Source of the DNA: an uncultured Myxococcales bacterium
GTDB taxonomy: Bacteria > Myxococcota_A > UBA9042
Reading direction: 5' to 3'
Length of the DNA stretch: 64,000 nt
NCBI GenBank assembly: GCA_903840165.1
Contig: CAIMEY010000002.1
Location: forward strand, 133,109-197,108
Shown here piece after piece: positions 2,683 to 63,830 of the stretch (positions within the stretch are counted from its first letter, which is position 1; each line of letters begins with the position of its first letter). The position numbers and the translations under genes were made by a program. Below the pieces are notes generated by a model. It ran no database searches. It was not told the origin of the DNA and saw only the letters and a program-made list of their open reading frames with translations.

Positions 2683-2790
2683 CAGATTCGGAAGTTGCGC
2701 GTCTAGCCGCGATGCCCCAGGCCCGTGACCGGCTGTGCTTTGCAAACCTTCACACTTCCGCGCCGTGCATGGCTATACTCACCGGACCGG

Positions 2791-2810
2791 CGTGCGCTAG
2801 ACTAAGCGCA
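2791..2810. promoter_or_regulatory. Perfect inverted repeat GTGCGCT-agacta-AGCGCAC just downstream of a TATACT -10-like hexamer (2773-2778); candidate operator for the giant Cys-repeat gene
   Basis: Read directly. 7-bp arms with a 6-nt spacer, lying ~45 bp upstream of the proposed start codon. The position relative to the putative -10 is that expected for a repressor operator. Confidence 0.3.
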
Positions 2811-2853
2811 CATCCGTCCGCTTGAGTTGAGTCTCCGTCTCGCCGAGGTTCTC

Positions 2854-18484: not shown

Positions 18485-18619
18485 GCAGTCCTCCGTCGCC
18501 AACCCTACCGGATCTTGGGTCCATTTGGCAAAGCCGCGCTCCTGGGAATGTCTTGCGGCCCTGCGGGGCTGACCCGTATGCTGGCGACGGGTCAAGCGCA
18601 CGGCGCCTGGGGTGAATAA

Positions 18620-19903
18620 GTGCATAAGAACTTGAAAGTCATGGCAATTCTTGGCGTCATGCTGGCCGTCTCTATGCTTGCGCCGTTGGGCGCGACGGCC
18701 TGGGCCAATGGTCGTTATCCAGCGGCGGGGCAACTGGTTGTCGACCCGATCGATGCCCAACGCATCGTGGTGCGGACCACCTTTGGCCTTTTGCAGACCA
18801 CCGATAACACCAAGCATTGGCAGTGGATTTGTGAAACTGCGGCGGGCTACGAGGACAATACGGACCCCTATTTCACCGTCGGCGGCAGTGGCGCCTTGGT
18901 CGTGGCGACGGCTACCGGCATGACGGTGAGCAGCGATCGCGGCTGTGTTTGGACGAAACTACCTGGATCAATGGGGCAATTGCCTGCCTATGACTTGGTG
19001 GTTTCGCTGTCGTCGCCCCTGAACATGTGGGCCGTGGACCAGAGCGACGGCGGCCTTCTGCAACTGCTGGCATCGACCGACGGTGGGCTACACTTTTCGC
19101 CACAGGGAGCAAAATTGCCTAGTGGCTTCAGCGCTCTAACCCTGGAAGTCGCGCCCTCCAATCCTCAGCGCATCTATGTCAGCGGCCAGCAGCAGCAGAC
19201 CCAGAGCGTGATCATGCGTAGCGACGATGGCGGCGCTTCCTGGCAGGCGTTACCGATGGATACGACCGATATTGTGGGCGATTTCGTTGGTGCTGTCGAC
19301 CCGCAACAGCCGGACCGCCTCTACGTGCGACGCAACACGGACACGGGGGATGCGCTGCTGTTCTCCAGTGATGCGGGGCTGACTTGGCAACAGGCCTTTG
19401 CCACCCCGGGGAAGTTGCTGGGGTTTGCGCTGTCCCCGGATGGTCAGACCGTGGCTCTTGGCGTAGTTGTCCCGCAATCGCCTGAATTGCGTGGGCTTTG
19501 GCTTGCCTCAAGCAGCGACATGGTGTTTCACAAGGTGCAGGATGTGCAGCCGACCTGCCTGACTTGGACCGCCCAAGGCCTGTGGATTTGCGCCCTGCAG
19601 TCCGTGGATCACTTTGTGCTCGGGCGTTCGGAGGACGCCGGCAAGTCCATCAAGCCGCTGCTGCAACTTGCTGACATCAAGCCACTGTCCTGTCCGGTCG
19701 GCACGCGCACAGCCAATGTCTGCCCTGCGGCTTGGACGCTCGTGGCCAAACAACTTGGTGTGGGTACCTCGCCAGTAGTTGCGCCGGCTCAGCCTATCTC
19801 TTCTGGATGTAATGGTTTTCGTGGGTCGTCGGCGATTGCTGTGCCGTGGCTGACCCTCATTTTGCTTCTGGCGCTCGGTCTGCGCACAAGGCGGGTGAAA
19901 TAG
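18620..19903 (+). CDS. Secreted BNR/Asp-box repeat beta-propeller protein with MYXO-CTERM sorting tail
   Basis: 427 aa. Signal peptide MHKNLKVMAILGVMLAVSMLAPLGATAWA. Repeated S-x-D-x-G-x-T/S-W motifs (SSDRGCVW, STDGGLHF, SDDGGASWQ, SSDAGLTWQ). C-terminus SGCNGFRGSSAIAVPWLTLILLLALGLRTRRVK is a MYXO-CTERM tail. Confidence 0.75.
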   Translation: MHKNLKVMAILGVMLAVSMLAPLGATAWANGRYPAAGQLVVDPIDAQRIVVRTTFGLLQTTDNTKHWQWICETAAGYEDNTDPYFTVGGSGALVVATATGMTVSSDRGCVWTKLPGSMGQLPAYDLVVSLSSPLNMWAVDQSDGGLLQLLASTDGGLHFSPQGAKLPSGFSALTLEVAPSNPQRIYVSGQQQQTQSVIMRSDDGGASWQALPMDTTDIVGDFVGAVDPQQPDRLYVRRNTDTGDALLFSSDAGLTWQQAFATPGKLLGFALSPDGQTVALGVVVPQSPELRGLWLASSSDMVFHKVQDVQPTCLTWTAQGLWICALQSVDHFVLGRSEDAGKSIKPLLQLADIKPLSCPVGTRTANVCPAAWTLVAKQLGVGTSPVVAPAQPISSGCNGFRGSSAIAVPWLTLILLLALGLRTRRVK

Positions 19904-22900: not shown

Positions 22901-23949
22901 ACTTCGCCGTTGGCGTTGCAGGCTGCATCCGCGGCGCAATCGTTGTCTTTGCAGTCGGTTGCGCCGTCCTTGTCGTCGTCAATGCCATTGGTGCAGTTGG
23001 CTTCCTTGGTCGGATTGGCGCAGGCCGCGTCGGCAGCGCAATCGTTGTCGGCGCAGTCCGTGGCGCCGTCCTTGTCGTCGTCAACGCCATTGGCGCAGTT
23101 GGTTTCCTTGGCGGGGATAGCTGCACACGCTGGGAAGGTCGCGCAATCACTGTCTTTGCAGTCGGTCTGACCGTCGCCGTCGTCGTCGATGTTGTTGGCG
23201 CAATCCGTTTCCGTCTTGCCAATCGCACACTTGGGGTCGGTGGCGCAGTCGTTGTCGGCGCAGTCGATGGCACCGTCGCAGTCGTCATCCTTGCCATCTG
23301 AGCAGTTGATTTCTTTGGTGTTTGCGCAGGTGCCGCTGCCGCCCTTGCAAACGCCGGCGACGCACAAGTCGCCCGTGGTCGTCGGGTCGCCGTCATCGCA
23401 GGGCTTGCCGTTGTTGGTGTACTGGCAACCGTTGGTAGAATCACAGGTTTCGTCGGTGCACGGGTTGTTGTCGTCGCAGTTGGCCTTGACGGTGCCGTTG
23501 CAGGTGCCGGCCGTGCAGACCGCTTGGCTGTAGCACATGTCGGCCGACTGGCAGTTGGTGCCGTCCGGGGCCGTGGCTGTTTGGCAAGTACCTGAACTTA
23601 CGTCACATTGGGCGACTTGGCAGGAGCCGACGTTGACCTTGCCGGTGCAATCGGCGTCGGTTTTGCAGCCGCCGCTCTGACTGCCTTGATCATCGGGGGT
23701 TTGCACGTCGTTGGTGCCGGTGTCGACCTTGGTCGTGTCGCCCGCCTTGGTGTCGCCTAGGTTCACGACGACGTCTTGTCCGCCGTTATTGTTGGCATTA
23801 TTGGTGGACGACTGCGTTCCGTTGCCGTCACTGCAGGCAGCTGCGAGCACAAGGCCAGCCGCAAGCAGGACGCGGGTACAGGCATTCAGGGCCGTGGAAG
23901 CGGGACGATGCATGGTAAGCTCCGAGAATGATTCTGAAAAAACCGGCAA
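19930..23949 (-). CDS. Giant multidomain lipoprotein: MopE-like/thrombospondin-type-3-like Asp/Cys calcium-binding repeats alternating with four pre-peptidase C-terminal (PPC)-like domains
   Basis: 1339 aa. Start at 23949 (MPVFSESFSELT) or 23913 (MHRPASTALNACTRVLLAAGLVLAAACSDG with LAAAC lipobox). More than 20 units of C-x-N/D-x-IDNDKDGKTDC-x-DSDCA-x-D-x-AC. Four ~120-aa modules with ...YTCKDGS.GNETG.E.TY... DLFVLDGS..C....C.AH.LM.... KY.FVVDGY......Y.I (PPC-domain-like). Confidence 0.85.
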   Translation of the reverse strand: MPVFSESFSELTMHRPASTALNACTRVLLAAGLVLAAACSDGNGTQSSTNNANNNGGQDVVVNLGDTKAGDTTKVDTGTNDVQTPDDQGSQSGGCKTDADCTGKVNVGSCQVAQCDVSSGTCQTATAPDGTNCQSADMCYSQAVCTAGTCNGTVKANCDDNNPCTDETCDSTNGCQYTNNGKPCDDGDPTTTGDLCVAGVCKGGSGTCANTKEINCSDGKDDDCDGAIDCADNDCATDPKCAIGKTETDCANNIDDDGDGQTDCKDSDCATFPACAAIPAKETNCANGVDDDKDGATDCADNDCAADAACANPTKEANCTNGIDDDKDGATDCKDNDCAADAACNANGEVNCTNGIDDDKDGLTDCADNDCAVNAACAVTVETNCGNLVDDDKDGKTDCNDSDCAKDAKCLAPKTETNCTDKIDNDLDGLVDCNDADCAADAACKATCNVCAAAAGGKPLDPACDPCAAKVCGTKDASGNWSGDGYCCDTAWDAVCVKEVFAACGKQCEADCANKKDDDGDGNTDCADDDCTKAAACNVPVATCQSAGSHICGDSVKGNNGDAGSSKALDSYTCKDGNANQETGPEMVYDVTAECDGAMTISLQKIGTASGYLDLFVLDGSKACAANTCIAHNLMGTDAATVTLKDAKKGTKYLVVVDGYANLATDFTLKIQCGCAGGKETICNDTIDNDADGLTDCKDSDCAADLACTPTVETNCTDKVDNDKDGKTDCGDSDCAKDPACVAPSTEANCTDKIDNDKDGKTDCNDSDCAKDPACAPTSTETLCSDKIDNDKDGKIDCADSDCAADAACSCKASYTLKSGVADNWNNGGNGSTQVVNTWTCTDGSAGNETGPELTYSYTADCTGDLTVTLTKTGSASEFIDLFLLDGTKPCAANTCVAHALMSNNAATKTVSVKKGDKYLFAVDGYNAVKSDYTIKAVCAGKETLCADKIDNDGDGKTDCDDSDCAADAACKVTTETKCADQIDNDQDGKTDCSDSDCAKDPACVISKESICDDKVDNDKDGKTDCADSDCAANPVCQCSGDFPLTCGGTDSYGNASAGSTDIVDSYTCKDGSFGNETGSEYTYTYLGECDGDVTVTLTKTSTAAGFLDLFVLDGSQVCAGSSCVAHGLMGGKTATVKFAGKKGAKYDIVVDGYNNYSGQYDIKIDCGCTPIPATEAICNDGIDNDKDGTTDCADSDCAADASCAAGCVGDFPMSCGSSDQYTSDSTGSTDKVDTYVCPANTYGTETGNEYTYDFTASCTGAITVTLTKVSTTPGYLDLFVLDGSKICDGKTCLAGGLMMNSTVAVTFNAVKDSKYLFVVDGYDGYAGDYKLDTACACK

Positions 23950-24285
23950 CTAGCCCCGGCTCTTGACGATCTGCCTGGCGCGAAGGGCGCAAGAGGATAC
24001 GGATCGGCCTGCCTGCGGTCAAGGGATTTCGTGCGCAAGGGACTTGGCGCGAGTCCGTTAAGGCCCAGCCCGCCTCACCGTCGCTTTCTGGCTGATGATC
24101 GAAGTAGGGGCGCAGGTCCTGCACATGGGCCGCGTGGTGATCGCCGGCACCGGCTCAGGTTGCGGGTCGTAGGCCAATCGAGCCGTCGCGCGGCGGTCGA
24201 TCACTGCAAAGGTCAGTCGTTGTAGGGGTTTGACCACTGCCCGCCATTGACAGTGCGGGCTTTGACCGTGCCCAAAGTGCACCTT

Positions 24286-24954
24286 CTAGAGGGCGGAATG
24301 CGCTTGGGGAAAGCGCTTTTCAGCATTTGGCTTCAGGGGCACGATCAGGTTGCGGAACTCGATCTCGCCCACGCCCTCGGCGTGGAAACTCTTGTCGACT
24401 TTGCCGTAGCGCGTGGTCGGTTTTGAATTCGTCTCCAGGGAACGCGGCTCAAGGCTACCGCACACGGTCAGGTCGACACCGCAGGGCACAAAGACTTCGC
24501 CAAAGAAATTGCCCTCTTCGCTGCCTAGGCCCCGATAGACCATCTTGGCGTTGGCATCCAGACAGTCGCCGATGGCGAAGTAGATGTAATAGTCCTCGCT
24601 AGCGGTGCGTCGTGGTCCTTCAAACTTGCCGCCAATCTCCACCTCGCAACTGCGCTTTTCTGTGCCGGAAACCGCTGTCGGCAGGGCAACAGCTGGCGTC
24701 GCCGGAGCCGCAATCACCACTGCGACGGGGTCGGCCTTGGCCAGTGCTGGCTTAGGTTCCTCTGACGCAATCGCGGGTTTGGGCATGCTAGGCGCCTCGG
24801 ACTTCTTGGTACAGGCACCCATGACCACGACCAGCAGGCCAATTAGCGCAAGGAGTTCAGCCCTTGGCGCGGTGCCAGCGTTGCCGATTGGCACAGGCGC
24901 ATCCAGGACAACCTTGAAATAACTAGGGATCTGTATCATTGGTTTGCACTCCAA
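24286..24954 (-). CDS. Hypothetical lipoprotein
   Basis: 222 aa. Internal start MIQIPSYFKVVLDAPVPIGNAGTAPRAELLALIGLLVVVMGAC (VMGAC lipobox) likely. No recognisable motif. 19-bp overlap with the upstream gene. Confidence 0.5.
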   Translation of the reverse strand: MECKPMIQIPSYFKVVLDAPVPIGNAGTAPRAELLALIGLLVVVMGACTKKSEAPSMPKPAIASEEPKPALAKADPVAVVIAAPATPAVALPTAVSGTEKRSCEVEIGGKFEGPRRTASEDYYIYFAIGDCLDANAKMVYRGLGSEEGNFFGEVFVPCGVDLTVCGSLEPRSLETNSKPTTRYGKVDKSFHAEGVGEIEFRNLIVPLKPNAEKRFPQAHSAL

Positions 24955-26483
24955 ACGAGGCTGCCGCGGCCCAGGCTAGGGGCGTCGGCGGTCGAACCGT
25001 CGCGGATGTCTGCCTGCAACGGCATGGCACGGCCGCCGCCGAAGACATACTGGTCCATTTGCTTGAGGTTTCCGGTCAGTACTAGGTCGACAAAGCCAGA
25101 CGCGCGAACGCTCGGGATGACGGCCTGGGCCAACGCAGGGGGCACCGTGGCGCGAATTTCGATCTTGCCGTCGACGACGCGTACGGGCACGGTCATCACG
25201 AATGGCGTGCTGCCCGGAACGAAGAGGTATGCGCGCAAGGTATCATTTTTGCTGTCTTTTCCGTCGGGAAGGATAGCGATTCGCGCCTCGCGGAACTGCC
25301 AACTGCCGACCAGCCACGCCGTGCTGCGAATGCGCGGCAGGATTCCGCGAATCATTAACACCGGCGCCGGGTTAGCGGGTACGGTCAGCTTGGCTTCAGC
25401 GGTGCCTCCTGCCGCCACGTCGATGGCAACCTCAGCGCCTGGAGCCACTTGCGCGACCACAGTTCCGTCCCGGCTGCCACTGTTCTTGACGGCAATGACG
25501 ACGTCGACGTCCTTTCCCCGTGCAAACACGGTCATCCGCGGCGCAATCCCGTCGACCTTGTGGGTTCGCAGTCCGAGTTCCCCATCAATTGCGTGTAGGT
25601 AGATGTCGGTCATACGCGTTGTCGGCAGCGCCTGCCACACGCGGCCGATCGCTTCTAGGGGCACGTCCGCGTCACAAGCCCGCTTATCCACGCCCAATTC
25701 GCGGCGGACAGGCTGGATGCCCACGACCTTGGCACTTGCTTCGCCGTCGCAGTCGAAGTGAAATTCCAGAATCAAACCAATCTTTTGCGTGCGCACCCCG
25801 CCGTGGGGCTGACACTGCGCTGTGTGGCTCAGCGTCAGATTCTGGCCGGGCAGCAGCAGTTGGCTGAGACGGTCGCCGCCGGCCAGTTCGACCTCAGCCA
25901 CCACTTGGTTTCGCGTCGGATTGTGCAGGATATATTTGAAAGTATAGTCTTTAGGCGTCAAGAACTTCCAACTGGTCGCTTGATTGCGCTTGAGCTCGTC
26001 CTGCAGCGCCTGTTGTGAAACGGTCGGGCCGCGCGGCTCCTCTTCCTCCGAAACCTGAGGCGATTCAACGGTGACCCACTGCGCGGCCTTGCTCGTCTGC
26101 ACGAGTTCTTGCAGGGCGTGCCACAGCGGGACACCGTCCGGCGTATCGGCCCGCGCTGCATAGAGATCGACTACCGTCTGCAGCGAGCACTCGCATTCCG
26201 GTTTTGGCTTGTCCGGCTTGCACTTGGGCAGCAGTCGCGCGCAGACCGACGCCACAGGCTCGCCACTGTTGGCCGCTGCCTGGTTGCGCGCCGCTACCGT
26301 CGGTCCGTCCATAACCACGCCATGGACGTTGGAACTGCTGCACCCGTCGGTCACCGCGAGCAGCAGGGCCAGCATCCCGGCCCACCGCAGAGCCAGCCGC
26401 GGAGCGCTGAGAACGGACAGAGAATTGCCACGAAAAATCGCGGAGATCGAGCGGAACTGTTGGAGCGTGAGGGGCGACAGCAT
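24936..26483 (-). CDS. Hypothetical secreted/lipoprotein (first gene of a two-gene operon divergent from the Ser/Thr kinase)
   Basis: 515 aa. N-terminal MLALLLAVTDGC lipobox-like signal. No recognisable catalytic motif. Confidence 0.55.
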   Translation of the reverse strand: MLSPLTLQQFRSISAIFRGNSLSVLSAPRLALRWAGMLALLLAVTDGCSSSNVHGVVMDGPTVAARNQAAANSGEPVASVCARLLPKCKPDKPKPECECSLQTVVDLYAARADTPDGVPLWHALQELVQTSKAAQWVTVESPQVSEEEEPRGPTVSQQALQDELKRNQATSWKFLTPKDYTFKYILHNPTRNQVVAEVELAGGDRLSQLLLPGQNLTLSHTAQCQPHGGVRTQKIGLILEFHFDCDGEASAKVVGIQPVRRELGVDKRACDADVPLEAIGRVWQALPTTRMTDIYLHAIDGELGLRTHKVDGIAPRMTVFARGKDVDVVIAVKNSGSRDGTVVAQVAPGAEVAIDVAAGGTAEAKLTVPANPAPVLMIRGILPRIRSTAWLVGSWQFREARIAILPDGKDSKNDTLRAYLFVPGSTPFVMTVPVRVVDGKIEIRATVPPALAQAVIPSVRASGFVDLVLTGNLKQMDQYVFGGGRAMPLQADIRDGSTADAPSLGRGSLVWSANQ

Positions 26484-39862: not shown

Positions 39863-40027
39863 CCTTGGTTCTCCCTGGTCCTTAGGGACCTGAGCCTTCG
39901 GCGACGGGCGCGTTCGCCTGTCTGCCTGCGACCTACACTTCTGTCAAGGTTCTTCATGGAAATCAATGGTTGGCAGCAGTCCGCGCTGACGTCGCGGCGG
40001 TGTGTGCCGCTCCGGCGCTGGGCGACC

Positions 40028-43000
40028 TCACGTCTCCAGCAGGGCCGCGCGCGCTTCCTTGTGCCCTGGTACCAGAGCCAGCGCATCCTCAAAGCAACTG
40101 CGGGCTTGGGCCGTTTGCTTACGCTTGAGGCGACAATTGCCCATGCCGACAAAGGCATCTGCGCGCACTTGCGCCTTGGTGCCAGGTCGTCGCGCCACCG
40201 CGTCAAAGAGCCTCATCGCTCGGTCCATGTCGCCAGCGCCAAGGTGAGCCCGTGCACAACCAAGGATCGCCTCTTGCTCATCTACCTGAATTTCCAAAGC
40301 TTGGTGGTAGTGGGTCCGCGCCGCCGCATAATCGTGCGCACCCTCAGCCGCATGGCCCGCCTGGATCAACCGAGCAAATCGCCCGGAATCGTCCAGGGTT
40401 TCATGCGCCAAGAGCCACTGGCTTAGCTGCAACGCCGCATGGAAGTCGCCGCTTGCTTGTAGCAGTGGCAGCAGCAGCGCATCGAGTTGCACGGTATCGC
40501 CGCCCAGGACATGGGCTTTTCGCAATGTGCTTGTCGCTTCCGTAACTTGCCCCAACTGCAGTTGAACCTGGCCCAGTTCAACATGCAAATCAAGCAGTTC
40601 ACCGCCCAACTCGAGGCGCAGCGTCGACCGTCCATCGCCATCTGCCAAGGCGTTGATCCACTGACGCAGCGATTCTGCTAATGCTTCATGGGAGTTCCGT
40701 GCCGCATAAAGGTCGCACAGCTTGCGCCGCGCCGCCCAGCGCTTCGGGTCCAGGCTCAAGAGCCGCTGATATTCCTTGATGGCCTTGCCCGGATTGTTCT
40801 GGCGTGTCGCATACAGGTCCGCCAATTGCTGATGCAGAACAATCTGTTCCTGTGGGTCTTTGCTGTCCCGCAGCAGCGCTTCCAGGCCCGTCAACGCCTG
40901 CTGCGCGTCGCCACTGCTGGCCTGCATCAAGCGTTGCACGTGGCGGGTAGCAGGATCACTCGGCGCAGATTTCAGCAGCAATTGCATGTGCTTGTCTGCG
41001 CTTGCTTCGTCATTCAGCTCCGTGAGCAGCACGCGAATCAGTTGCGCTTGCAGGGCGACGTGCCCGTCCTTGCGGGCCTCCTTGGCTAGGCGGTGCTCCG
41101 CGGCTTGGACCCAGGCGGCCCAGACCCGATGCTGATCGGCGATTCGCAGCAATTCATCAACAAGTACGGGGTTTTCAGCGTCATCCCCGAGGGCCGTCCT
41201 CAGCGCCTCGCAGGCCCCGTTGCCGTCTCCCCGCTCCGAACGCGCCTGCGCCAAACGCCGCAGGGTCAGCGTGCGCGTCGGCCCTGGCTGTAAGTGCTTA
41301 GCACGCAAGGCATAGAGCGGTTCCAGGCGTCGCGCCTCGTGGCCGGCTTGGCGCTCGAGGAACACAAAAGCCTCATCGTGGCCAGGGTCAGCGCGAAATG
41401 CTTCTTCATACAGGTCGTTGGCTCGATCTGCGTTCTTCAACTCGCGTGCCTGCAACCGCGCGGCTTCACAAAGGTGATCTGCACGCTCGACCGACCCGGC
41501 TGTGATGCGTGCAAGGACGACCAGGCTAGCTGCTAATGCCTGGGGATCATTGCGATCGCGCAGCAAATCAACGAGTTCCGCGTGGGCCTGTGGGTCATGG
41601 GCATCTAGGTCGCATAAGGCGCGCAGGGCGGCAACAGCGTCGTCCAGCTTGTCCAAAGTGCGAGCCAGACCCGCCACCCGGTGCAGGCCTAGGCGTTTCC
41701 GGTCTAAATTTTCAAGCCTTGCCACTCGACTCTGCCAAGCGCCGAGCAGGTCGGTCCAGCGTTCAGCCGCATCGTAGAGCGTCTCTAGCATCTCAAATGC
41801 ATCGTCATCTTCAGGGCTTCCCTGCACTAGGGTAACGAGGTGCCCCTCTGCCTTCTTGGTATCTCCCGCTTCAATCGCCTGTTGCGCTGCATAATGAAGG
41901 ACTTGCGCGAGATCACTGGGCGAAAGCGGTGCCGCCAGCACGGCAGCTGTTGCCTCAGCCAGCACGACACTGTCCTGGGGAAGCCGGGCAGCGTGGCGAA
42001 GTGCCAGCCACGTTGCGACGGACGGACTCGCACGCAGGGCGGCCGCCAGCGCTTGCACACCGTGGCCCAGATTGCTGGCGTGATTGGTTTCAATCCACGT
42101 GATTTCTTTGGCAATTTCCGACTGAGCTGCCGAATTCTGCGCCTTTTGCAGCTTGACCTGCAGCAGTTGCAGCACGCCGTCCCATTGCTGAGCGCCGCGC
42201 AAAAGCGGTTCGAGTTCGGCCAGGGCCTCGGCCTGCGTCGCCGGTTCAGCCGCCAACTGTAGGCCCAGGGCGACGGCGTCCGATTGCGTGGGATCGACGC
42301 GGAGCACATCGAGGACTAGGCGAAGCGTTTGGCGAGGTCGGCCGAGGAACCGTTCAATATCAGCAAGTTCCAAGCGCCACGCATTGACGTCGCCGGTTCC
42401 GAGCATGATCGCACGGGCCAGGTCTCGACCCAGCGCCGCTGCATCCCCAGACTCGCGACGGCAGGCCAACGTCGCTTCGCAGGCGTCCAAGTTGTCGGAG
42501 TCCTGGTCCCAGACCAGCGTCCATAAGTCAGCAGCTCGACTAGATAATCCGGCTTCTCGGCCAGCACCTGCGGCCAAGGATACCGCGTCGGACATGGCCT
42601 CGGGCGGTACCTCTTCGGCCGAAAGGGCGTCAAAGACTTGGTCCAGCCAAGCCTCGACCAAGTTGCCAGTGCGGGCGATATCCGAAGAAAGCGCAATCGC
42701 TTCAAGCGGTTCAACGCCATCGCGCACCTGGTCCATCAGCAAATCCAAGGCGTCTTGGTGTTGGCCAAGGTCATCGGCCACAGCCGAAGCCAGTGCCCGA
42801 CCTGCAGCCCCGCGCTCGGAGGCGGGCAGGGCAGCAAGCGCCATTTGCTGAATCTTCACAGCGAGATCGGCATGGCCTACTTCGCGAAGAATGGGCACTA
42901 GGGTCTCAGACGTTGCCGCCAGTAAGCCCTCATGGGATGCGTGGCTATTGAGAAATGCCCACAACTCAGCACTTTGCGGTGCAACAATAACGACTTGCGC

Positions 43001-46000
43001 CAAGTGACCGACGGCATCGCCGACATCCTCGGCCTGCAGGGCTAGCGCCGCGGCCTCTACACGCAAGGGTACAGAATCTAAGTCGTTCATGCCCTCGAGT
43101 GCATCGAGCCATGCCAATCGAGCCGCACCGATGTCGCCGACCTTGGTGAGCGCCCGCGCGTGCAGCACACGCATCGCCGCATGGTTTGGCTCTGCTTGTA
43201 GGACTCGCTGCGCAGCCAACAGTGCCTCAGGCCACCGGTTTTGTGCCGCCAGGGCCGTTGCGACCGCCGCAGACTCAGCCGCTTGCAGTCGATCTCCCAG
43301 GCGCCGCCCAAGGTCAATAAGCAGTTGTTGATCCAGCTGTTCCATGGCAACAGCCAAACGCGCGCGCAGGGGAGCCTCGGCCTGCGGACTCAGGGCCAGG
43401 GCGGCGTCGAGGGCGTGGATCTGATCGCCCACATCCTCGGTCAACGCCGCGATTTCCAACCAGAGTTCGGCTGCTGCGTCAGGCGTCTTGTCTTGCAGTT
43501 GCTCGGCCCGCGTTTGCAGGTGGTGGCGCAGCGCCTCCGCATCGCCTTGAGCCCGTGCGTCCGCCTCGAGCCAAGCCTGCGCCGGGGCCTGATCTGAAGT
43601 AGATGCTGCCAAAAGCCCGGCAAATACGCGGGCTTGCTCGGTCAGCTCCTCATGTCCCCGGGCCAGCGCAAAGCCGGTTTGTGCAATCGCGTCGGCGTCT
43701 TCGCGCCCGGCATCGGCGATGTCGAGCAAGCTCGCCGTGGCGACTGCGGCAGAATCTACTGATTGTGCTACAGTTTCAAGCGCTTGCAATACTGAATGAA
43801 TGGGTGCCGGGGTCAAAGCCTGCAGCAACCATTGCAGGGCCTGATCGGCATCCTTCAAATGATCGCGTGCGAAAATGCCTAATTCCAACCAATTATCGCG
43901 GGCTTGCGCAGGCTCGAGGTACTCACTCGCCAGCAAATGGGCTTGAAGCCATGAGTCGGGGTCTCGGTCCGGATTCACGTCGGCTAAACGCCATTGAATC
44001 GCCGTCTTGGCTTGGTCCGGCTTCAGCTCGGCAAGGCTCATGGCCAAGCGCGTCACTGCTTCACTGGTCGCCCTGGTTTCTGCCCCCAGATCACGAATTT
44101 CAGCAATGGCGGCAAAGAGTTCAGGCGCAGCATTCTGTTCGATCAGTTGGCGGGCCAGCAGGCGCAGCACCGTGGGCTGATCCCCTTGCTGCCTAGCCTG
44201 GGCCAGGGCCTGCTGAACGCGCGCAGCATCCTGACCACGTAGCGCATCGGCTTGTTCGTCCAAGCCCGCGGAATGCGCCATTTGCGTTGCAATTTCAAGC
44301 CAATGTGATGCATCTGCCGCGCCGGGTTCCGCCTGCAAGAGCTCATCGATCAAAGCGAAGCCTGCAGCGCTCTGTCCGAGGTAACGGTGCAGAATCTGTG
44401 CTAGTTCTACCTGAACCTGTTGGTGCTGCTGGACCGTTCCCGTGCGCAGCAGACTCAGACGCAGGTGGTCGGCCAGACGCGGCCAACGGTCGCTCTCGGG
44501 TAGCTCCTGTAACGCCGCGGCGCGCAAGGCGAAAGCCTCGTCGTGGTGCGCGTCCTGAGCCAGAACCAGGTCGAGCACATCGACCATCCGCGCAAAATCA
44601 TTGCGGGCATAGGCGCGTTCGGCCAACTTCAGGCGCTCGGCCGTTCTCTGCTGATCATCGGCAAGCCATTGACTTGCATCGCGAACGATGTCGTCGATGT
44701 CGCCGCCTTGGTCCATCGCGTCTGCAAGGCGGAGCACCTCAGCCACGGCTCTGTTGTGCCACGTGCCGTCCAGCAGGGGCAGCCACGTGCCCAAGGCCGC
44801 GCCAAGGTCGTGCAGGGAATTCTCAAACACGGACGCTAGGTTGGCGCGGATCTCTTGCTGTGAATTGCCCTCGGAAATCGGCACGGTTGCCAGGAGTCCC
44901 TGCAAAGCAGCGGCTTGTGTGGCAAAATCGCCGCGATCTCGTGCTGATTCGGCCCACAAGTTGAGGGCAAAATGCACGACCTGCGGATCGCCAGATTCAC
45001 TGAGATTCTGAAGGGTTGCGTCGCTTAGCTTGGGCTCAACTAGCAGGGCCAAACGCTTGACGGCGCTCTTGGCGGCCTCCGCGGTCGGGGCGCTGGCCAG
45101 AAAAGTGCAGGCCGCAGTAAAGGCGCCAGCAATATCAGATTGTTGTGCCTCGCGCAGCGCAATCAAACGTTGCCACGCGGCGCCATCACCGGCCTCGCCC
45201 CGGCGTTGCAGGACGGTCGCCAAACTGGCCGTGTCACCGCGCATGTCGAGCAACTGCTCGAGGCGATCGGCCTGAATCGACAGGGAAAGATCGACCCCAG
45301 CCTCGGCCGATTTCAGCCAATTACCAAGGGCTTGCGTGGCTGCTTGGTCCTGTCCAGGATCGCTGTCCAGCGCCTGCAGCCAGTGGTCCAGCGCGGCGCG
45401 CGGATCGGCTCCCCGCTCAAGGAGATCCGCCAATTCAAGACGCCAAATCTGTAGTTGCGCCGCATCCACATCCGCTGCCGGTTGCTTGAGGCGCAACTGC
45501 AGTTCGGTCGCTAGGGCCTGGGGCGTGTCCCATTGGCGAATGGCATCAAGAACCGCCGCGGCAACTTCCTGACTTTCGGGAAGATTCTCGCGCGCGCGCC
45601 TCAAAGCATCCAGCGCCTCAGCGGGGGATTGCCGCTCATCGCTGTGCAGGGCCGCCAGGCGCAGCCAACTCATCATGCGATCGTCGGCACTTAGGTCGGC
45701 GACGATTCGCTGCTCGAGCGCCAAAGCCAGCGCGTCCAAGTCATTGGATTCACGCAGTAATGTCTCAAGCTCTTCGTGCAAATCGTGGCGATCGGGCACC
45801 AGCTCCAAGAGCCATCTCAACACGATGGCGGCCAGGTCGCGGTCGCCCTGCCCAAGCGCGCGCTGCACCGTCAATTGCCCCAAAACTACAGCTTTTTGGC
45901 GGTCTTGCAGGACCGTCACCTCGTCCTGGGGCGCAAGGCCCAGGGCTGCACAGGCTAGGCCCGTCCATTCGCCCGGCCTCTCGGCTGCATCGGCCAAATC

Positions 46001-49000
46001 TGCAGCGAGTTGCCAGCGAGAAAAGGCTGTCGGATCAACGCGTAAGACCGGCAGTAACCCGTCCAGGGCGCGTCCAGGGTCGCTCGCTTGCAACTGCAGA
46101 GCCAGGTCATCGGCGCGCAGGGCCCTCTTGGTGGGATCTGTCTCGGCAAGCTGCAGAATTTCCTGGCATATCAACGCTTCCTGATCGCGGCCTTGGCGTT
46201 CCAGCACCGGCAGCAGGGCGGCTGCCAGTGGCGCGTGCTTGGCCTGCAGATCCAGCCGACTCTGGGCGATACTGATCAATTCAAGTTGTTGATCAAGGAG
46301 TTCATCAACATCGCCCATCTCACGCACAAGACTCAGCACCGCCGCGGGGACAGGTGCATCCACCGGCGTCTGGCTCAACCGGTCCACCGCGGCTTGGAGG
46401 CGGGCTGCCTGATGTTCAGCTGATAATTCAAGGACTTGATCGAGTGCGTTCTGCCACGCCAGTTGGCCAGCGTCCGTCGCGGTGCCGTCTTTTGGCGCCA
46501 GGGCTCGGGCCAGACCGATGCGGCCTTCGGCTGAGGCAGGGTCATGGGCAAGCAGTTGCGCGTAAAGGTCAGCGACAAGTGCCTGATCATGAAGGGAAAT
46601 ATCCGCTTGCTCAGCAGCTCGCAGCAGCCATTGGCTGCGTTCAGGCCCAGTGCTGAGGCTGGCACGGCGGCGCAGCGAGTCGACCACAGTAGCCCAGTCC
46701 CCTTGCGAGGCTGCGATTTCCTGGCGAATATCAAGGAGTTCTGGCTGGTCGGCGCCTTGGGCGTCATCGCTGGAGGCCAGGGCCCTTTGCACCGCGCGGG
46801 CAGCCAGGTCGAAATCTTCATGCTTGATGCTAAGTTGCGCAATCTGTCGCCACAGCGGCGCCAGGGCCTGACGCACCGAGGCATCATCTCCCGCGGAATC
46901 CTGTGCAATTTCAGCCCACGCGGCCAATCGGTCGGCAGTTCCTGCACCTTGACCGGCCAGGACGGCGAGTTCGGCGTAGCGACCGCACCAATGAATCGCC
47001 TGGGCGATCTCGGCGTCCACCAGGAGCTCTTCAGCCAATTCCGCTGCATATTCGCTGGCTTGCTCGGGCATTTGCACCCGCGCACAGGCCTCGATTCGCT
47101 GTAGACGCCAGGCTCGGCCCGTGGTCGACGGATCCCCAGCGCACAGGGCATCCAGGGCTTCCAGTTCGAGGCCCGCAATGTGGGCCTTGACCGCGAAATC
47201 CAAAAGCATTTGTGCGGCAGCTTTCACATCTTCCCCGGCCGACGAACCAATGCTGATCGTCGACCTCAAGGCATGGCCGGCGACCAGTGCCGCCCGTTCC
47301 AATTGGTCCGGGCAAGAAGCCAGCGCCCGCGCAGCCTGGGTCTGCAGATCGGCGCGCAGTTTGGTGGCATCGGCCGCCAGGCGTGATTCGCAGTCCTGGG
47401 CAAAAGCTGCAAAATCTTCAGCACCTGCGGGCGTGTCGGCAAAAAGGCTTCGTGCCGTCTGCACCTGTCCACCGAGGACTTGGGCCCGGGCCAGCAGAGA
47501 AACAGCCACGTCGTGGTGTGGGTTCAGGGCGTGGAGCTGCGTCGCCGTCGCCAAGGCTGCTGGCGAATCGCCCAGGACTTCATCTTGCAACGTCGCAAGT
47601 TGGCTGAGGAATTGGCATTTTGTCGCCGAATCTTGGCCGGGTGCCTGCACTTGCGCCTGCAGGGCAGCGGCAAGGGCCTCGGCCTGATCGCCACTGGCGC
47701 ACAATCGCGTCAATGCCTGTAATGACAAGGTGTTGCCAGGTGAAACAGCGAGGTGAAGCTCAAACAAGCGCACAGCGATCGGTTCGCTCAGTTCCTCAGC
47801 AAGAATCGCTGCTTCACGCAGGTACTCACTCAGCGTGGTCGGCACACCCGCCGTCCAGCGCCCTGTCAGGTCGGCCGCCGTCACTTGGCGCACGTCTTGC
47901 TGCAGTTGAGCCGTGATGAGGCCAAGGTAAGCCCGTAAAAGTGCACTGGAATCACCGCGGTCTCGCAGAGCGGTCAGCCAAGCCTGCGCGACGCCTGCGT
48001 GGTTCGGGGCGTGGGCGGTGGCGCGCTCCAACGCTGCCAACTGGGCCGCAGCATTCCCTTGTTGTCCATAAACATCAGCTAGTTGCAGTAGCCATGGCAC
48101 CAAGGCCGCCGCATCGCCACCAGCAGCAACTGCGGCCTCCAGGATGGCTACAGCCTCATCGGGATTTGCTGCAGCGACCGAGGCCTCGACGGCTTGGGCA
48201 TGGCCTGGTGCTAGGGCAAGTACCTGAGTCCAAGCTTGTTTTGCCAGGGCAGCATCCGCCAGAGGTCCTTGAGGGTCGTGCAGTGCTGCCACCCGTGCCA
48301 GGATTGAAGCGGCGCGCTGCAGGGCGGAAGCGTCGAGCGCGGCCCGGTTCACAAGCGCTCGCACAGCGCGGTCTAGGAGCTCACGCAGGGCCTGCCAACG
48401 GCCTTGCTGCTGATAGAGCCGTTCCAGAGCCGTAGTTGCTTCGACCTGATCGGGCTGCACCGTGAGCACGCGCTGCCAAGCTTCCACGGCGCGATCGGGA
48501 GTGGCCAACGGGCCTTCGCACAAGCGCGCGATTTCAGAAGCAATTCGAATGACTTCACGACCTTCGCTCACGGCCAAACGCTGCGTGAGGGCCACCAAGA
48601 GCCGCTTGTGATCGCCGGAGTCCCGGTACCAGTTCTCAAAGAAGTTCAGGGCTTCAGCGTTGTGTGGCGCAAGGGTTCGCACGCGACGCAATTGCCGTTC
48701 GGCCTTGTCTAGCTCGGACTTCTCCTGCGTTTCGCGATAGCGATCCTGCGCAACCCAGGAAAGTGCAAGGCAAATTACAGCTTCACCTTCGCGATCCCTC
48801 TCGCGCACGGCATCGGCCCGCAGCTTGTCTAGGGCAGACTCGAGCCCTTCGCCCGCAGCCAACACGCCGGTGACAAGGTGGCGCGCCCGCAGCACTTGAT
48901 CATCGGGCAACGCTTGGCACAGCACGGTGAGGGCCACGTGAGCGGCACCCGGCAAGGTGCGATCCACGTCATGCAGGTTGGCCAATTCGTCGGCCAGCGG

Positions 49001-49822
49001 CAAACGTTGGGCCGGCGAGGCCTGCGAATTCAGGCAGGCAACCAAGGCCTTAGCCAACTCGTCGCGGTCGCCGGTCGCTCTGGCGACTTCCACCCAACGT
49101 GGCGTAATTTCACCAATAGATTCAGTCGTTCCGCTGCTTGCCGTCAGCAACTCTACCGCATCGGCCAGAACGGCTGCGGCATCGGCCAGAGGTTCCTCCC
49201 CGTCGATGAGTAATTCCGCATAACCTACAAGGATTTGCGCTCGGTCTTCTTCCGGTGCCTCGGCAATCGCAAGACGTTGTCCAGCCAAAAGGGCCTGGCG
49301 ATCCTGCTGCTGTTGGGTCGCGATATCATGCAAGTCTGCAATTTCAGAGTTGTCTGGCTGGAGCTTGGCCAATTGCGCCAGCGCTACCAACGCCGATTGA
49401 CCGTGCCCGCGCTGGACATGGCTCTGCGCCGCCCGCAGCCAGGACTCCGCTTTGGCATCCGGATCGGTGTCGAGGTCTGCTATGGAATCAATGAGGTTTC
49501 CCAGGCGATTGAGGCGTGCGAAGGCCTCGTCCTGCTCCGCCAGGACAAGGAGACGCTTGCCGGTCGCGGGCGTTGGATGCAGGCGAAAGGATTCGCGAAA
49601 TAGGTCAAGCGCCCGGCCAGGATCCTGGGCAAAGACACAGCGAGCGGCGCGATCTAACAAGGCTGCACGCACGGCAGGGTGCGGTTCGGCCGAGGCCAGC
49701 GCTAGCAACTGCCCGGCGGCAAACTCTCGCGGCTCTGGTCCGGCATTCTGGCGCAGAAGAGCAGCAATTTCAAGGATGTCTTGTTCACTCGGTGGCGGCG
49801 TGGCGCCGGGGCTCTGCAGCAT
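40028..49822 (-). CDS. Giant (3264 aa) Ala/Leu/Asp/Glu/Gln/Arg-rich alpha-helical repeat (TPR-like solenoid) protein of unknown function
   Basis: Single uninterrupted 9.8-kb ORF. No signal peptide or TM. Compositionally helical throughout. C-terminus has clear TPR-like repeats (...YHQALEIQVDEQEAILGCARAHLGAGDMDRAMRLFDAVARRPG...ARSCFEDALALVPGHKEARAALL). Ends 165 bp upstream of argC on the same strand. Confidence 0.85.
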   Translation of the reverse strand: MLQSPGATPPPSEQDILEIAALLRQNAGPEPREFAAGQLLALASAEPHPAVRAALLDRAARCVFAQDPGRALDLFRESFRLHPTPATGKRLLVLAEQDEAFARLNRLGNLIDSIADLDTDPDAKAESWLRAAQSHVQRGHGQSALVALAQLAKLQPDNSEIADLHDIATQQQQDRQALLAGQRLAIAEAPEEDRAQILVGYAELLIDGEEPLADAAAVLADAVELLTASSGTTESIGEITPRWVEVARATGDRDELAKALVACLNSQASPAQRLPLADELANLHDVDRTLPGAAHVALTVLCQALPDDQVLRARHLVTGVLAAGEGLESALDKLRADAVRERDREGEAVICLALSWVAQDRYRETQEKSELDKAERQLRRVRTLAPHNAEALNFFENWYRDSGDHKRLLVALTQRLAVSEGREVIRIASEIARLCEGPLATPDRAVEAWQRVLTVQPDQVEATTALERLYQQQGRWQALRELLDRAVRALVNRAALDASALQRAASILARVAALHDPQGPLADAALAKQAWTQVLALAPGHAQAVEASVAAANPDEAVAILEAAVAAGGDAAALVPWLLQLADVYGQQGNAAAQLAALERATAHAPNHAGVAQAWLTALRDRGDSSALLRAYLGLITAQLQQDVRQVTAADLTGRWTAGVPTTLSEYLREAAILAEELSEPIAVRLFELHLAVSPGNTLSLQALTRLCASGDQAEALAAALQAQVQAPGQDSATKCQFLSQLATLQDEVLGDSPAALATATQLHALNPHHDVAVSLLARAQVLGGQVQTARSLFADTPAGAEDFAAFAQDCESRLAADATKLRADLQTQAARALASCPDQLERAALVAGHALRSTISIGSSAGEDVKAAAQMLLDFAVKAHIAGLELEALDALCAGDPSTTGRAWRLQRIEACARVQMPEQASEYAAELAEELLVDAEIAQAIHWCGRYAELAVLAGQGAGTADRLAAWAEIAQDSAGDDASVRQALAPLWRQIAQLSIKHEDFDLAARAVQRALASSDDAQGADQPELLDIRQEIAASQGDWATVVDSLRRRASLSTGPERSQWLLRAAEQADISLHDQALVADLYAQLLAHDPASAEGRIGLARALAPKDGTATDAGQLAWQNALDQVLELSAEHQAARLQAAVDRLSQTPVDAPVPAAVLSLVREMGDVDELLDQQLELISIAQSRLDLQAKHAPLAAALLPVLERQGRDQEALICQEILQLAETDPTKRALRADDLALQLQASDPGRALDGLLPVLRVDPTAFSRWQLAADLADAAERPGEWTGLACAALGLAPQDEVTVLQDRQKAVVLGQLTVQRALGQGDRDLAAIVLRWLLELVPDRHDLHEELETLLRESNDLDALALALEQRIVADLSADDRMMSWLRLAALHSDERQSPAEALDALRRARENLPESQEVAAAVLDAIRQWDTPQALATELQLRLKQPAADVDAAQLQIWRLELADLLERGADPRAALDHWLQALDSDPGQDQAATQALGNWLKSAEAGVDLSLSIQADRLEQLLDMRGDTASLATVLQRRGEAGDGAAWQRLIALREAQQSDIAGAFTAACTFLASAPTAEAAKSAVKRLALLVEPKLSDATLQNLSESGDPQVVHFALNLWAESARDRGDFATQAAALQGLLATVPISEGNSQQEIRANLASVFENSLHDLGAALGTWLPLLDGTWHNRAVAEVLRLADAMDQGGDIDDIVRDASQWLADDQQRTAERLKLAERAYARNDFARMVDVLDLVLAQDAHHDEAFALRAAALQELPESDRWPRLADHLRLSLLRTGTVQQHQQVQVELAQILHRYLGQSAAGFALIDELLQAEPGAADASHWLEIATQMAHSAGLDEQADALRGQDAARVQQALAQARQQGDQPTVLRLLARQLIEQNAAPELFAAIAEIRDLGAETRATSEAVTRLAMSLAELKPDQAKTAIQWRLADVNPDRDPDSWLQAHLLASEYLEPAQARDNWLELGIFARDHLKDADQALQWLLQALTPAPIHSVLQALETVAQSVDSAAVATASLLDIADAGREDADAIAQTGFALARGHEELTEQARVFAGLLAASTSDQAPAQAWLEADARAQGDAEALRHHLQTRAEQLQDKTPDAAAELWLEIAALTEDVGDQIHALDAALALSPQAEAPLRARLAVAMEQLDQQLLIDLGRRLGDRLQAAESAAVATALAAQNRWPEALLAAQRVLQAEPNHAAMRVLHARALTKVGDIGAARLAWLDALEGMNDLDSVPLRVEAAALALQAEDVGDAVGHLAQVVIVAPQSAELWAFLNSHASHEGLLAATSETLVPILREVGHADLAVKIQQMALAALPASERGAAGRALASAVADDLGQHQDALDLLMDQVRDGVEPLEAIALSSDIARTGNLVEAWLDQVFDALSAEEVPPEAMSDAVSLAAGAGREAGLSSRAADLWTLVWDQDSDNLDACEATLACRRESGDAAALGRDLARAIMLGTGDVNAWRLELADIERFLGRPRQTLRLVLDVLRVDPTQSDAVALGLQLAAEPATQAEALAELEPLLRGAQQWDGVLQLLQVKLQKAQNSAAQSEIAKEITWIETNHASNLGHGVQALAAALRASPSVATWLALRHAARLPQDSVVLAEATAAVLAAPLSPSDLAQVLHYAAQQAIEAGDTKKAEGHLVTLVQGSPEDDDAFEMLETLYDAAERWTDLLGAWQSRVARLENLDRKRLGLHRVAGLARTLDKLDDAVAALRALCDLDAHDPQAHAELVDLLRDRNDPQALAASLVVLARITAGSVERADHLCEAARLQARELKNADRANDLYEEAFRADPGHDEAFVFLERQAGHEARRLEPLYALRAKHLQPGPTRTLTLRRLAQARSERGDGNGACEALRTALGDDAENPVLVDELLRIADQHRVWAAWVQAAEHRLAKEARKDGHVALQAQLIRVLLTELNDEASADKHMQLLLKSAPSDPATRHVQRLMQASSGDAQQALTGLEALLRDSKDPQEQIVLHQQLADLYATRQNNPGKAIKEYQRLLSLDPKRWAARRKLCDLYAARNSHEALAESLRQWINALADGDGRSTLRLELGGELLDLHVELGQVQLQLGQVTEATSTLRKAHVLGGDTVQLDALLLPLLQASGDFHAALQLSQWLLAHETLDDSGRFARLIQAGHAAEGAHDYAAARTHYHQALEIQVDEQEAILGCARAHLGAGDMDRAMRLFDAVARRPGTKAQVRADAFVGMGNCRLKRKQTAQARSCFEDALALVPGHKEARAALLET

Positions 49823-50177
49823 CGAAGCTCCGTCGCGCGGGCGTAAGGTGTGGCCCGCCGTTCTGGCGCGGTGCCGTCGTCCAGCAGCTGGCTCGACGGG
49901 CGACGATCGGCGATTTGCTCAAGGAATTCGCATGGCCACCCGACCATTCGCGCCCCTCCGTGAGGGCATACCGCCTCGTGCTGCGCAGTCTAGCCTTGCG
50001 CTAGCGTCCCCGCAACCTGCCGATCCGCCCGGCGATCCATTGCTTTGCAGCCCGACGCGGCGCACGGGCCGTGTTTAGGCACTTGGCGATCAGCGGCCGG
50101 CAAGCCGGGGACGTGCCCTCGGCTTTGGGCAACACTGGCGCAGTGGCTCCCGCATTGTGCCCAAATTCAGGAATCAT

Positions 50178-61528: not shown

Positions 61529-61602
61529 GTCCCCGTAGCTCAGAAGGATAGAGCGTTCGCCTCCTAAGCGAAAGGCCACAGGTTCGATTCCTGTCGGGGA
61601 CG
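61529..61602 (+). tRNA. tRNA-Arg (anticodon CCT)
   Basis: GTCCCCGTAGCTCAGAAGGATAGAGCG-TTCGC-CTCCTAA-GCGAA-AGGCCACAGGTTCGATTCCTGTCGGGGACG. 7-bp acceptor stem GTCCCCG/CGGGGAC. Anticodon loop CT-CCT-AA. GTTCGATTC T-loop. CCA not encoded. Confidence 0.85.
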
Positions 61603-62966: not shown

Positions 62967-63006
62967 GGATGGCTGCGCGTGCTGGGCTTGCCTCGTCGAC
63001 CTGGGC

Positions 63007-63035
63007 TTGACACCTGCATCACTGCTGCCCATACT
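63007..63035 (+). promoter_or_regulatory. Sigma-70-like promoter (TTGACA-17 nt-CATACT) upstream of tRNA-Leu
   Basis: TTGACA at 63007-63012, 17-nt spacer, CATACT at 63030-63035. ~85 nt upstream of the tRNA 5' end. Confidence 0.35.
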
Positions 63036-63119
63036 GTCCGCCGCTTGCAGACACCTGCGCGGTGCGAGCGGGCAAGGCGAGGAGAGGCCCCTGTGCAGGC
63101 AAACTCCTTGAAAGTCCAT

Positions 63120-63203
<84 letters not shown>

Positions 63204-63281
63204 CCCCAACTGACCTGCTGCAAGCGCCACTGGTATCCAACCAAGTGGCGCTTTGCGTTTTTGCCGCAGACGGCGGGACTT

Positions 63282-63830
63282 ATGCGTCTGATAGACCTCT
63301 CGATGACGCCCGTGGCCACGACGATTTCGCATGGATTATCGTGGATTGGCATGGTGCTTCTCCTCCTGGCGGGGCCTCTGAGTTGCGCCAAGTCAGGGCC
63401 GGAACGACATCTCGAACAGGCGGAAGCGCAACTCAAGGATGCGCTTGACCTTTTACGCCAAGCGCATGGCAAGCAGCGGGCTTTGCTGGCGGCGACCCTT
63501 GCCTACCGCGCCGATCATGGGGCTCAGATCCAAGCGTTGCGCGTGCACGGCGGCGAAATTCTCAATCAACTCAATGGCGATGAGCGCATTCACTGGCAGA
63601 CCGAGTCGCAGAACCGCCTCTCGCCCGTGCTAGCGCAAATTGAACTGGCGAGTCAGCAATTCCTGATTCCGGAGCAGGCTTTGGCTGTGGTGATGCCCCT
63701 GCTGGTCCAAGCCACGCCCAAGGCGACCGGCCAAAGGCCTTGGCTGCCGCCGGTGCCGCCTTCGCCCTTTGAACAATCAGGACCTGCGCCAGGCCTGCCA
63801 GGGGCTCATTCGCCTGGGAGTGCGCCATGA
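63282..63830 (+). CDS. Hypothetical secreted/membrane-anchored protein
   Basis: ORF 62979..63830 overlaps the tRNA. Internal start MRLIDLSMTPVATTISHGLSWIGMVLLLLAGPLSC (signal/anchor) at 63282 is more plausible. Its stop overlaps the lnt ATG (ATGA). Confidence 0.45.
   Translation: MRLIDLSMTPVATTISHGLSWIGMVLLLLAGPLSCAKSGPERHLEQAEAQLKDALDLLRQAHGKQRALLAATLAYRADHGAQIQALRVHGGEILNQLNGDERIHWQTESQNRLSPVLAQIELASQQFLIPEQALAVVMPLLVQATPKATGQRPWLPPVPPSPFEQSGPAPGLPGAHSPGSAP

Follow-up and report, generated by a model that had tools for sequence, protein, structure and literature searches.

To our knowledge, GltI/AgmK of Myxococcus xanthus is the only giant bacterial tetratricopeptide repeat (TPR) scaffold with a functional context, and its role itself is only modeled. 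GltI (MXAN_4863) has 3822 amino acids (aa) and a published model roughly 1100 Angstrom long. It is described as a cytoplasmic giant TPR protein of the Agl-Glt gliding or focal-adhesion machinery, composed of TPRs and a large helical C-terminal domain (PMC11761067), and in M. xanthus, its gene is a member of cluster G1, gltD-E-F-G-(H)-I (PMC3169522). Here, we analyze a gene of 3264 codons carried by a 64,000-nucleotide (nt) stretch of DNA from an uncultured Myxococcales bacterium (assembly GCA_903840165.1, contig CAIMEY010000002.1, positions 133,109 to 197,108), the whole of which is called the window below. The gene lies upstream of argC-argB, and its product is referred to as the giant. We consider it rather probable that the giant is a cytoplasmic, nonenzymatic TPR scaffold or spacer that is paralogous to the GltI type and probably cotranscribed with argC-argB.

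The giant belongs to the TPR-like alpha-solenoid superfamily (Pfam clan TPR). Pfam recognized only TPR-type families on it, with the best-scoring stretches at residues 2962-3254, those of TPR_2, TPR_1, TPR_8, and TPR_19 falling at residues 2997-3254 (40.2, 33.8, 34.4, and 30.6 bits for cutoffs of 27, 27.8, 25.7, and 25, respectively). NCBIfam added partial matches to PrsT, BatC, and MamA, the last one starting at residue 2937, and designed CTPR chains found by the PDB sequence search matched the same C-terminal TPR region, one of them also matching residues 368-494. Altogether, the Pfam, NCBIfam, PADLOC, and PDB sequence searches returned TPR-type matches and no enzymatic domain. A defense-system reading was rejected, the PADLOC search giving one generic TPR match (E=1e-4) and nothing else. 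The protein is rich in Ala (19.6%) and Leu (15.2%), with Asp, Gln, Arg, and Glu at 6.6-8% each, and carries a net charge of about -179, the block 701-2400 being the most acidic (net -120). No signal peptide, lipobox, transmembrane segment, beta-rich or Ig-like domain, or sorting tag was found in it; its N terminus is not hydrophobic, and its maximum Kyte-Doolittle 19-residue mean (1.74) falls on an Ala-rich segment containing Asp and Glu. The first-pass annotation of this DNA had already described an alpha-solenoid/TPR protein of this composition, with TPR repeats at the C terminus and neither signal peptide nor enzymatic motif, and all of this is borne out. Its suggestion of a cytoplasmic scaffold appears probable in view of the TPR fold and of the lack of an export signal or enzymatic domain. 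The "leucine-alanine" heptads that it mentioned were not recovered. Hydrophobic periodicity stands out at lags of 17, 36-37, 54, and 70-73 residues, as in helical-hairpin, TPR-like proteins, and lag 7 is without signal (z = -2.0 to +1.0), so that the repeats, with a period of ~17/36/72 residues, are not heptads and a coiled-coil reading was discarded.

AlphaFold2 (AF2) models based on family alignments were obtained for residues 1-700 and 2401-3264, which together make up 48% of the giant. The first is all helical hairpins with a mean predicted local distance difference test score (pLDDT) of 81, and the second is an unbroken hairpin solenoid of 48 helices with a mean pLDDT of 90.2. Both contain only 12- to 18-residue helices paired as hairpins and no other domain, and as modeled, these tandem antiparallel hairpins form a continuous superhelix. 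The best PDB matches found by Foldseek for both modules are TPR/HAT scaffolds (TTC21B, Ski3, Ctr9, Prp6, and the OGT TPR domain). The 17/54/70-73 periodicity is also seen in the remaining middle part, residues 701-2400, which is matched by a repeat profile derived from the giant's own sequence. The two ends differ from the middle in the way they are conserved among orthologues (Table 1). The N-terminal module carries the signature AERxxRRVRTLxP..EAL.FFE..YR..GDHKRLL...GPLATPxRAVEAWQRVL..QPD at about residues 373-458, which is recognizable in paralogous groups, and in the middle, orthologue insertions average ~230 and ~190 residues at two sites. The length range of the orthologues, about 3009-3916 aa, is mostly due to such middle-region insertions and deletions.

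Far from being the one-off curiosity that it seemed at first, the giant is a member of a conserved group of orthologues from lake Myxococcota, itself part of a Myxococcota-wide superfamily. An exhaustive phmmer search of residues 1-1200 against 1.84 billion representatives gave 1888 matches, 274 of them at E<1e-30; nearly all listed proteins have 3000-4600 aa and bear the source names of TPR proteins of Myxococcota, Myxococcales, Polyangia, or Bradymonadales. About 20 of these relatives align collinearly with the giant from the first to the last residue at 33-45% identity. Patterns derived from a 10-orthologue alignment, run against GTDB species each represented by one genome, returned 27 orthologue loci, all in uncultured metagenome-assembled genomes (MAGs). 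Lakes are the main source of these (Baikal, Mendota, Tanganyika, Zurich, Erken, Loclat, and further lakes in Sweden and Finland), next to groundwater. Full-length orthologues occur in >20 species-level MAGs; the closest locus reaches 52% identity in its best segment, the species of the window not being among the 27 loci. The record titles name Myxococcales, Myxococcota, or Deltaproteobacteria. Three of the records, CAYHHL01, CAMDBH01, and CAYURO01, are instead titled "Klebsiella pneumoniae" or "uncultured Enterobacteriaceae" and yet carry the cupin-giant-argC-argB locus described below, so that these names are apparently wrong.

When 152 giants were compared all against all, with collinear chaining, five main groups emerged (groups 2 to 6). 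The orthologues of the window's giant form group 2, to which a small sister group is added, group 5 has 13 proteins, and group 6 is a large group of ~3730-aa proteins. A ~350-aa non-TPR C-terminal domain is present in all 47 proteins of groups 3/4 and absent from groups 2, 5, and 6, as tested by BLAST with the C-terminal 469 aa of a group-3 giant, WP_111729458.1, from the cultured Bradymonadales Lujinxingia litoralis. This query matched over its full length only in groups 3/4 and by its TPR portion only in the other groups. Neither Pfam nor NCBIfam holds a model for GltI or for the group-3 C-terminal domain. The window's giant is most closely related to group 5 (residues ~330-1100 and ~2490-3254 collinear at ~23% identity), and it has in common with groups 5 and 6 the signature AE..FRR.R...P....L.FYE.YY....DW.RL......GPL..P.KAIEAW.RVL...P.H. 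Toward group 3, hhalign aligned the orthologue profile over 3141 columns (probability 100%, E=2e-132, 17% identity), leaving template columns 3308-3875 unaligned and thus stopping short of the C-terminal domain. One genome, GCA_018813065.1, encodes both a 4623-aa group-3 giant with the C-terminal domain and a 3823-aa group-6 giant without it; hence, the groups are paralogues. As a side observation, FHA, PP2C phosphatase, and FHA genes (23039..25460 of locus L033) lie 3 kb downstream of the group-6 giant P0146; this is a single case, which may matter in view of the predicted interaction of GltI with an FHA domain.

The link between this superfamily and gliding comes from Lujinxingia litoralis. 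Its group-3 giant is directly preceded, in order, by a 1105-aa TPR protein and homologues of GltE (NF033758, 2e-46), CglF/GltF (2e-16), and GltG (NF033760, 8e-118), then by a protein with an AgmX/PglI C-terminal domain and a 309-aa TPR protein. This layout, resembling the glt G1 cluster, spans positions 151..22330 of L035, where the protein with the AgmX/PglI tail is found, and is repeated on a second contig (L039, 641..22345), the two giants having 4109-4114 aa and the non-TPR C-terminal domain. Because this layout and the C-terminal domain match the published descriptions of the G1 cluster and of GltI, groups 3/4 would represent the GltI/AgmK type. M. xanthus GltI was not found by name among the cluster members, which are MAG proteins and those of Lujinxingia litoralis, and no glt gene was found beside the giants P0076, P0022, P0146, P0136, P0023, and P0187. 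By comparison with the glt-linked group-3 giants, the window's giant, being devoid of the C-terminal domain and of glt context, would be a paralogue rather than an orthologue of the GltI/AgmK type. It does share with GltI the general character of a cytoplasmic TPR-rich Myxococcota protein of >3000 aa; the large non-TPR helical C-terminal domain is lacking in both the giant and its orthologues, and the giant gene lies neither in nor beside a glt G1 cluster (gltD-E-F-G-H-I-J).

What the giant has instead of glt neighbors is a fixed place next to arginine biosynthesis genes. In every orthologue locus with enough flanking sequence, the cupin, giant, argC, and argB genes follow one another in this order and on one strand, with the GyrI-like gene kept upstream of the cupin gene in a subset of them. 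In 23 loci, spacers range from 16 to 183 nt between giant and argC and from -1 to 146 nt between argC and argB, the giants there having estimated lengths of 3009-3894 aa, and the genes past argB vary by lineage (dnaB in the window, argG and prs in L003). In the window, the placement of the giant gene ahead of argC and argB on the same strand, as first annotated, is upheld by the TIGR01850 and TIGR00761 matches. The giant-argC spacer contains a lone TTGACA hexamer, which no matching -10 accompanies, and the argC ATG is preceded by a GGGAG; no terminator-like site was found in the spacer. Likewise, no match to the sigma-70 consensus was found in the 355-nt region upstream of the giant gene, the promoter and terminator scan as a whole yielding fewer matches than shuffled sequence and thus being of little information. 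A GGAG lies 5 nt ahead of the giant-gene ATG. Owing to the conserved one-strand order across species, the short spacers, and the lack of an intervening terminator-like hairpin, the giant gene is probably cotranscribed with argC-argB.

Based on these comparisons, we propose the following model. The giant would fold as one very long TPR-like alpha-solenoid, whose length, by proportion to the GltI model, could be on the order of 90-100 nm. As its fold suggests, it would act as a nonenzymatic scaffold or spacer for protein-protein interactions, in which the indel-free end modules (residues 1-500 and 2401-3264) could dock specific partner proteins and the variable middle, gaining and losing repeats, could set the distance between the two ends or offer repeated binding surfaces of low specificity. 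In evolutionary terms, the giant would represent lake Myxococcota within a superfamily of giant TPR proteins that spans the phylum. Several points weigh against this model: (i) a scaffold role deduced from the fold would suit almost any long TPR protein, (ii) the middle 1700 residues lie outside the AF2 models, (iii) the 165-nt gap and its lone TTGACA leave room for a separate argC promoter, (iv) synteny conserved inside one clade can be neutral, (v) repeat proteins inflate E-values and the identity in the hhalign alignment is low, (vi) it is chiefly the common architecture and the conserved N-terminal signature that support kinship with the GltI type, and (vii) group 3 can be equated with GltI only indirectly, and glt genes are not adjacent to three further group-3 loci. 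Owing to the fifth point, we claim homology at the superfamily level only.

A bolder form of the model, which we regard as unlikely, would make the giant a second lineage of giant TPR "rulers" in Myxococcota, distinct from GltI and locked in an operon with argC-argB throughout the history of the planktonic lake clade. Conserved ends together with a variable middle do suggest a molecular ruler or a multivalent platform. If so, these bacteria would hold either an unknown cytoplasmic megastructure, with docking ends and a spacer of variable length, or a structure coupled physically or regulatorily to arginine synthesis.

The same gene order raises the possibility that the giant is functionally tied to arginine biosynthesis and scaffolds or regulates ArgC/ArgB, in a metabolon or by sequestration. 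Such a tie is suggested by one feature, the invariant and tight arrangement of giant, argC, and argB on one strand in >20 species, with spacers down to 16-21 nt and different genes further downstream in different lineages. However, no TPR protein of 3000 aa is known as a partner of Arg enzymes, and the giants of the paralogous groups have unrelated neighbors and no arg genes. Moreover, the upstream genes (cupin, GyrI-like, and major facilitator superfamily transporter) are also partly syntenic, so that the whole block may be kept by descent in one clade, and argC-argB pairing is common on its own. We therefore hold a dedicated role in arginine synthesis to be improbable.

Equally improbable is the possibility that the giant is itself the GltI/AgmK orthologue, relocated from the other glt genes and clustering Agl-Glt motors via the GltG FHA and GltJ GYF domains. 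In its favor, the giant matches GltI in size class, in its cytoplasmic TPR solenoid, and in phylum (PMC11761067), and its similarity to the glt-linked giant of Lujinxingia was picked up by both phmmer and hhalign. Several Myxococcota have dispersed glt genes, and as noted above, three group-3 giants also lack glt linkage. Against it, the C-terminal domain common to all 47 group 3/4 proteins is missing, and the giant clusters apart from these proteins, its normalized similarity to P0115 being 0.013 versus 0.196 inside its own group. No Glt/Agl model match was obtained among the scanned open reading frames (ORFs) of the 64-kb window, and no glt/agl gene was seen in the flanks (10 kb) of those orthologue loci that were compared with the genes neighboring the giant in the window, the invariant neighbors being argC-argB and the cupin gene. 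The coexistence of giants of different groups in one genome further argues for paralogy.

Less probable still is that the giant is a structural protein exported from the cell or associated with its envelope, similar to an adhesin or an S-layer protein. An extracellular location is common among giant bacterial proteins (bioRxiv 10.1101/2023.11.21.568195), and two large Cys-rich repeat proteins of a type usual on myxobacterial surfaces are encoded in the window. Nevertheless, the giant has none of the export signals, membrane segments, or beta-rich domains listed above, it has the composition expected of an acidic, helical, soluble protein, the modeled 48% is TPR solenoid throughout, and the characterized relative GltI is cytoplasmic.

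Beyond its fold and location, the giant gene is real and under selection. Its 9.8-kb frame is far above chance expectation, and at least four independent metagenome assemblies contain this gene at the same length of 3264 aa, in one case on a contig of 280 kb. These additional copies were reached via the neighboring ArgC, and the two readable ones differ from the window by 1 and 3 nt over 9795 nt with the frame intact. A scan of the gene for DNA repeats revealed no tandem and no significant dispersed repeats, so that repeat collapse or expansion is no concern. A recent internal duplication was likewise rejected, the protein showing weak self-similarity (3 matches) and the DNA no repeats; the protein repeats are ancient and diverged. 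That the ORF might be an assembly artefact or a spurious, untranslated high-GC frame, as long spurious ORFs do arise in high-GC genomes and many ORFs of 100-270 aa overlap the locus in other frames, can practically be dismissed as far as sequence evidence reaches, in view of the length of the frame, its identical length across independent assemblies, the lack of DNA repeats, the full-length orthologues at 33-45% identity with conserved end modules, and the confident AF2 models. The first-pass annotation had indeed named frameshifts as what would undo it, which the independent assemblies and the orthologues exclude; the 3264-aa ORF itself is confirmed, on the minus strand, which had not been given. 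Its ranking among the largest ORFs plausible for a bacterium was overstated, since the family itself reaches 4623 aa and predicted bacterial proteins of up to 85,804 aa have been reported (bioRxiv 10.1101/2023.11.21.568195).

Table 1. Features of the 64-kb window, in window coordinates, starting with the giant gene and its neighbors.
Feature	Coordinates	Strand	Evidence or remark
Giant gene	40028..49822	-	Uninterrupted ATG-to-stop frame, 3264 codons; acidic TPR-like alpha-solenoid
Conserved N-terminal module, residues 1-500	48323..49822	-	Identity ~0.42-0.62 per 100-aa block, almost indel-free
Variable middle, residues ~1501-2400	42623..45322	-	Lowest identity to orthologues, 0.16-0.35
Conserved C-terminal module, residues 2401-3264	40028..42622	-	Identity 0.33-0.60, no indels
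Stretch recognized by library TPR models, residues ~2937-3260	40043..41014	-	Pfam, NCBIfam, PDB
Upstream intergenic region, likely promoter region of the giant gene	49823..50177	-	355 nt
Giant-argC spacer	39863..40027	-	165 nt
argC (N-acetyl-gamma-glutamyl-phosphate reductase), 354 aa	38798..39862	-	TIGR01850 E=4e-106, above cutoff
argB (acetylglutamate kinase), 271 aa	37836..38651	-	TIGR00761 E=3e-44, 151.2 bits versus cutoff 151.3
Cupin, mannose-6-phosphate-isomerase C-terminal type, 131 aa	50178..50573	-	Pfam PF01050/PF07883; directly upstream of giant
GyrI-like small-molecule-binding protein, 157 aa	50661..51134	-	Pfam PF06445 E=3e-15; upstream of cupin
dnaB (after argB), 553 aa	34530..36191	-	~95 extra N-terminal residues
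Dicty_CTDC protein, 1930 aa, 23 Cys-rich repeats	2827..8619	+	Pfam E=1e-143; large repeat type typical of Myxococcota-like genomes
S41 peptidase related to MXAN_5808 family	15789..17687	-	Taxonomic marker
Myxosortase-dependent metalloprotease family member	17594..18817	-	NF041905 E=1e-18, below cutoff
"Acidic double-disulfide" repeat protein, 1339 aa, 15 repeats	19930..23949	-	NF033662 E=2e-125; Pfam nothing
NAD-dependent DNA ligase ORF, 821 aa	58888..61353	-	~195 residues ahead of adenylation domain
Two tRNA genes	61529..61602 and 63120..63203	+	

Elsewhere in the window, the MXAN_5808-type peptidase, the myxosortase-dependent protease, and the Dicty_CTDC protein are signature families of Myxococcota, the first two serving as taxonomic markers in favor of a Myxococcota origin of the window. 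The additional N-terminal residues of the DNA ligase and DnaB are either real extensions or the result of over-long ORF starts. A 283-aa ORF at 62979..63830 is probably spurious, as the second tRNA gene sits inside it.

As orthologues of the giant were already deposited as "tetratricopeptide repeat protein" (e.g., MFZ4576827.1) and giant TPR scaffolds are known from GltI, the giant does not stand for an entirely new type of protein. The novelty, from the sequence comparisons presented here, lies in a distinct and conserved GltI-paralogous subfamily without the C-terminal domain, with conserved ends, a variable middle, and an invariant linkage to argC-argB. GltI-type giants would accordingly be one branch among several paralogous ones, of which single genomes can hold more than one, and one of these branches has been conserved, its gene order unchanged, among lake Myxococcota that are abundant and uncultured, its fixed link to argC-argB being an unexplained regularity. 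These results frame the question of what cytoplasmic solenoids of roughly 100 nm do in bacteria. For annotation purposes, the C-terminal domain can serve to separate "GltI-type" giants from the others now labeled "tetratricopeptide repeat protein."

Compared to known systems, the giant finds its best structural matches (Foldseek E of 1e-8 to 1e-13) in eukaryotic TTC21B/IFT139 of IFT-A, Ski3, Ctr9, Prp6, and the OGT TPR domain, i.e., superhelical hairpin arrays that organize multiprotein complexes. The likeness is one of fold class only, with 10-18% identity, TM-scores of 0.1-0.4, and no homology implied, and these scaffolds are 3-4 times shorter than the giant. Nearer in sequence are the group 5/6 proteins (NUN12530.1, 3825 aa, from a Myxococcales MAG; MCD6497835.1, 3731 aa; MBU0553488.1, 3823 aa), which like the giant lack the GltI-type C-terminal domain and share its N-terminal signature, their N- and C-terminal modules being collinear with those of the giant at 22-25% identity. 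They are, however, longer (~3700-3840 aa), differ in the middle, and come from other Myxococcota lineages, where their neighbors are unrelated, not conserved, and without argC-argB link. From the GltI type, the giant differs by the absence of the ~350-aa non-TPR C-terminal domain, by its separate sequence cluster, by its lack of gltD-E-F-G-H-J neighbors, by its fixed position beside argC-argB, and by a poorer fit to canonical TPRs (MamA model E=2e-9 versus 3.5e-79 for the Lujinxingia giant). Both are nonetheless Myxococcota proteins made of a single cytoplasmic chain of TPR-like hairpins of >3000 residues without enzymatic domain, in which library TPR models recognize a short stretch only, and for both, the proposed role is that of a multivalent scaffold.

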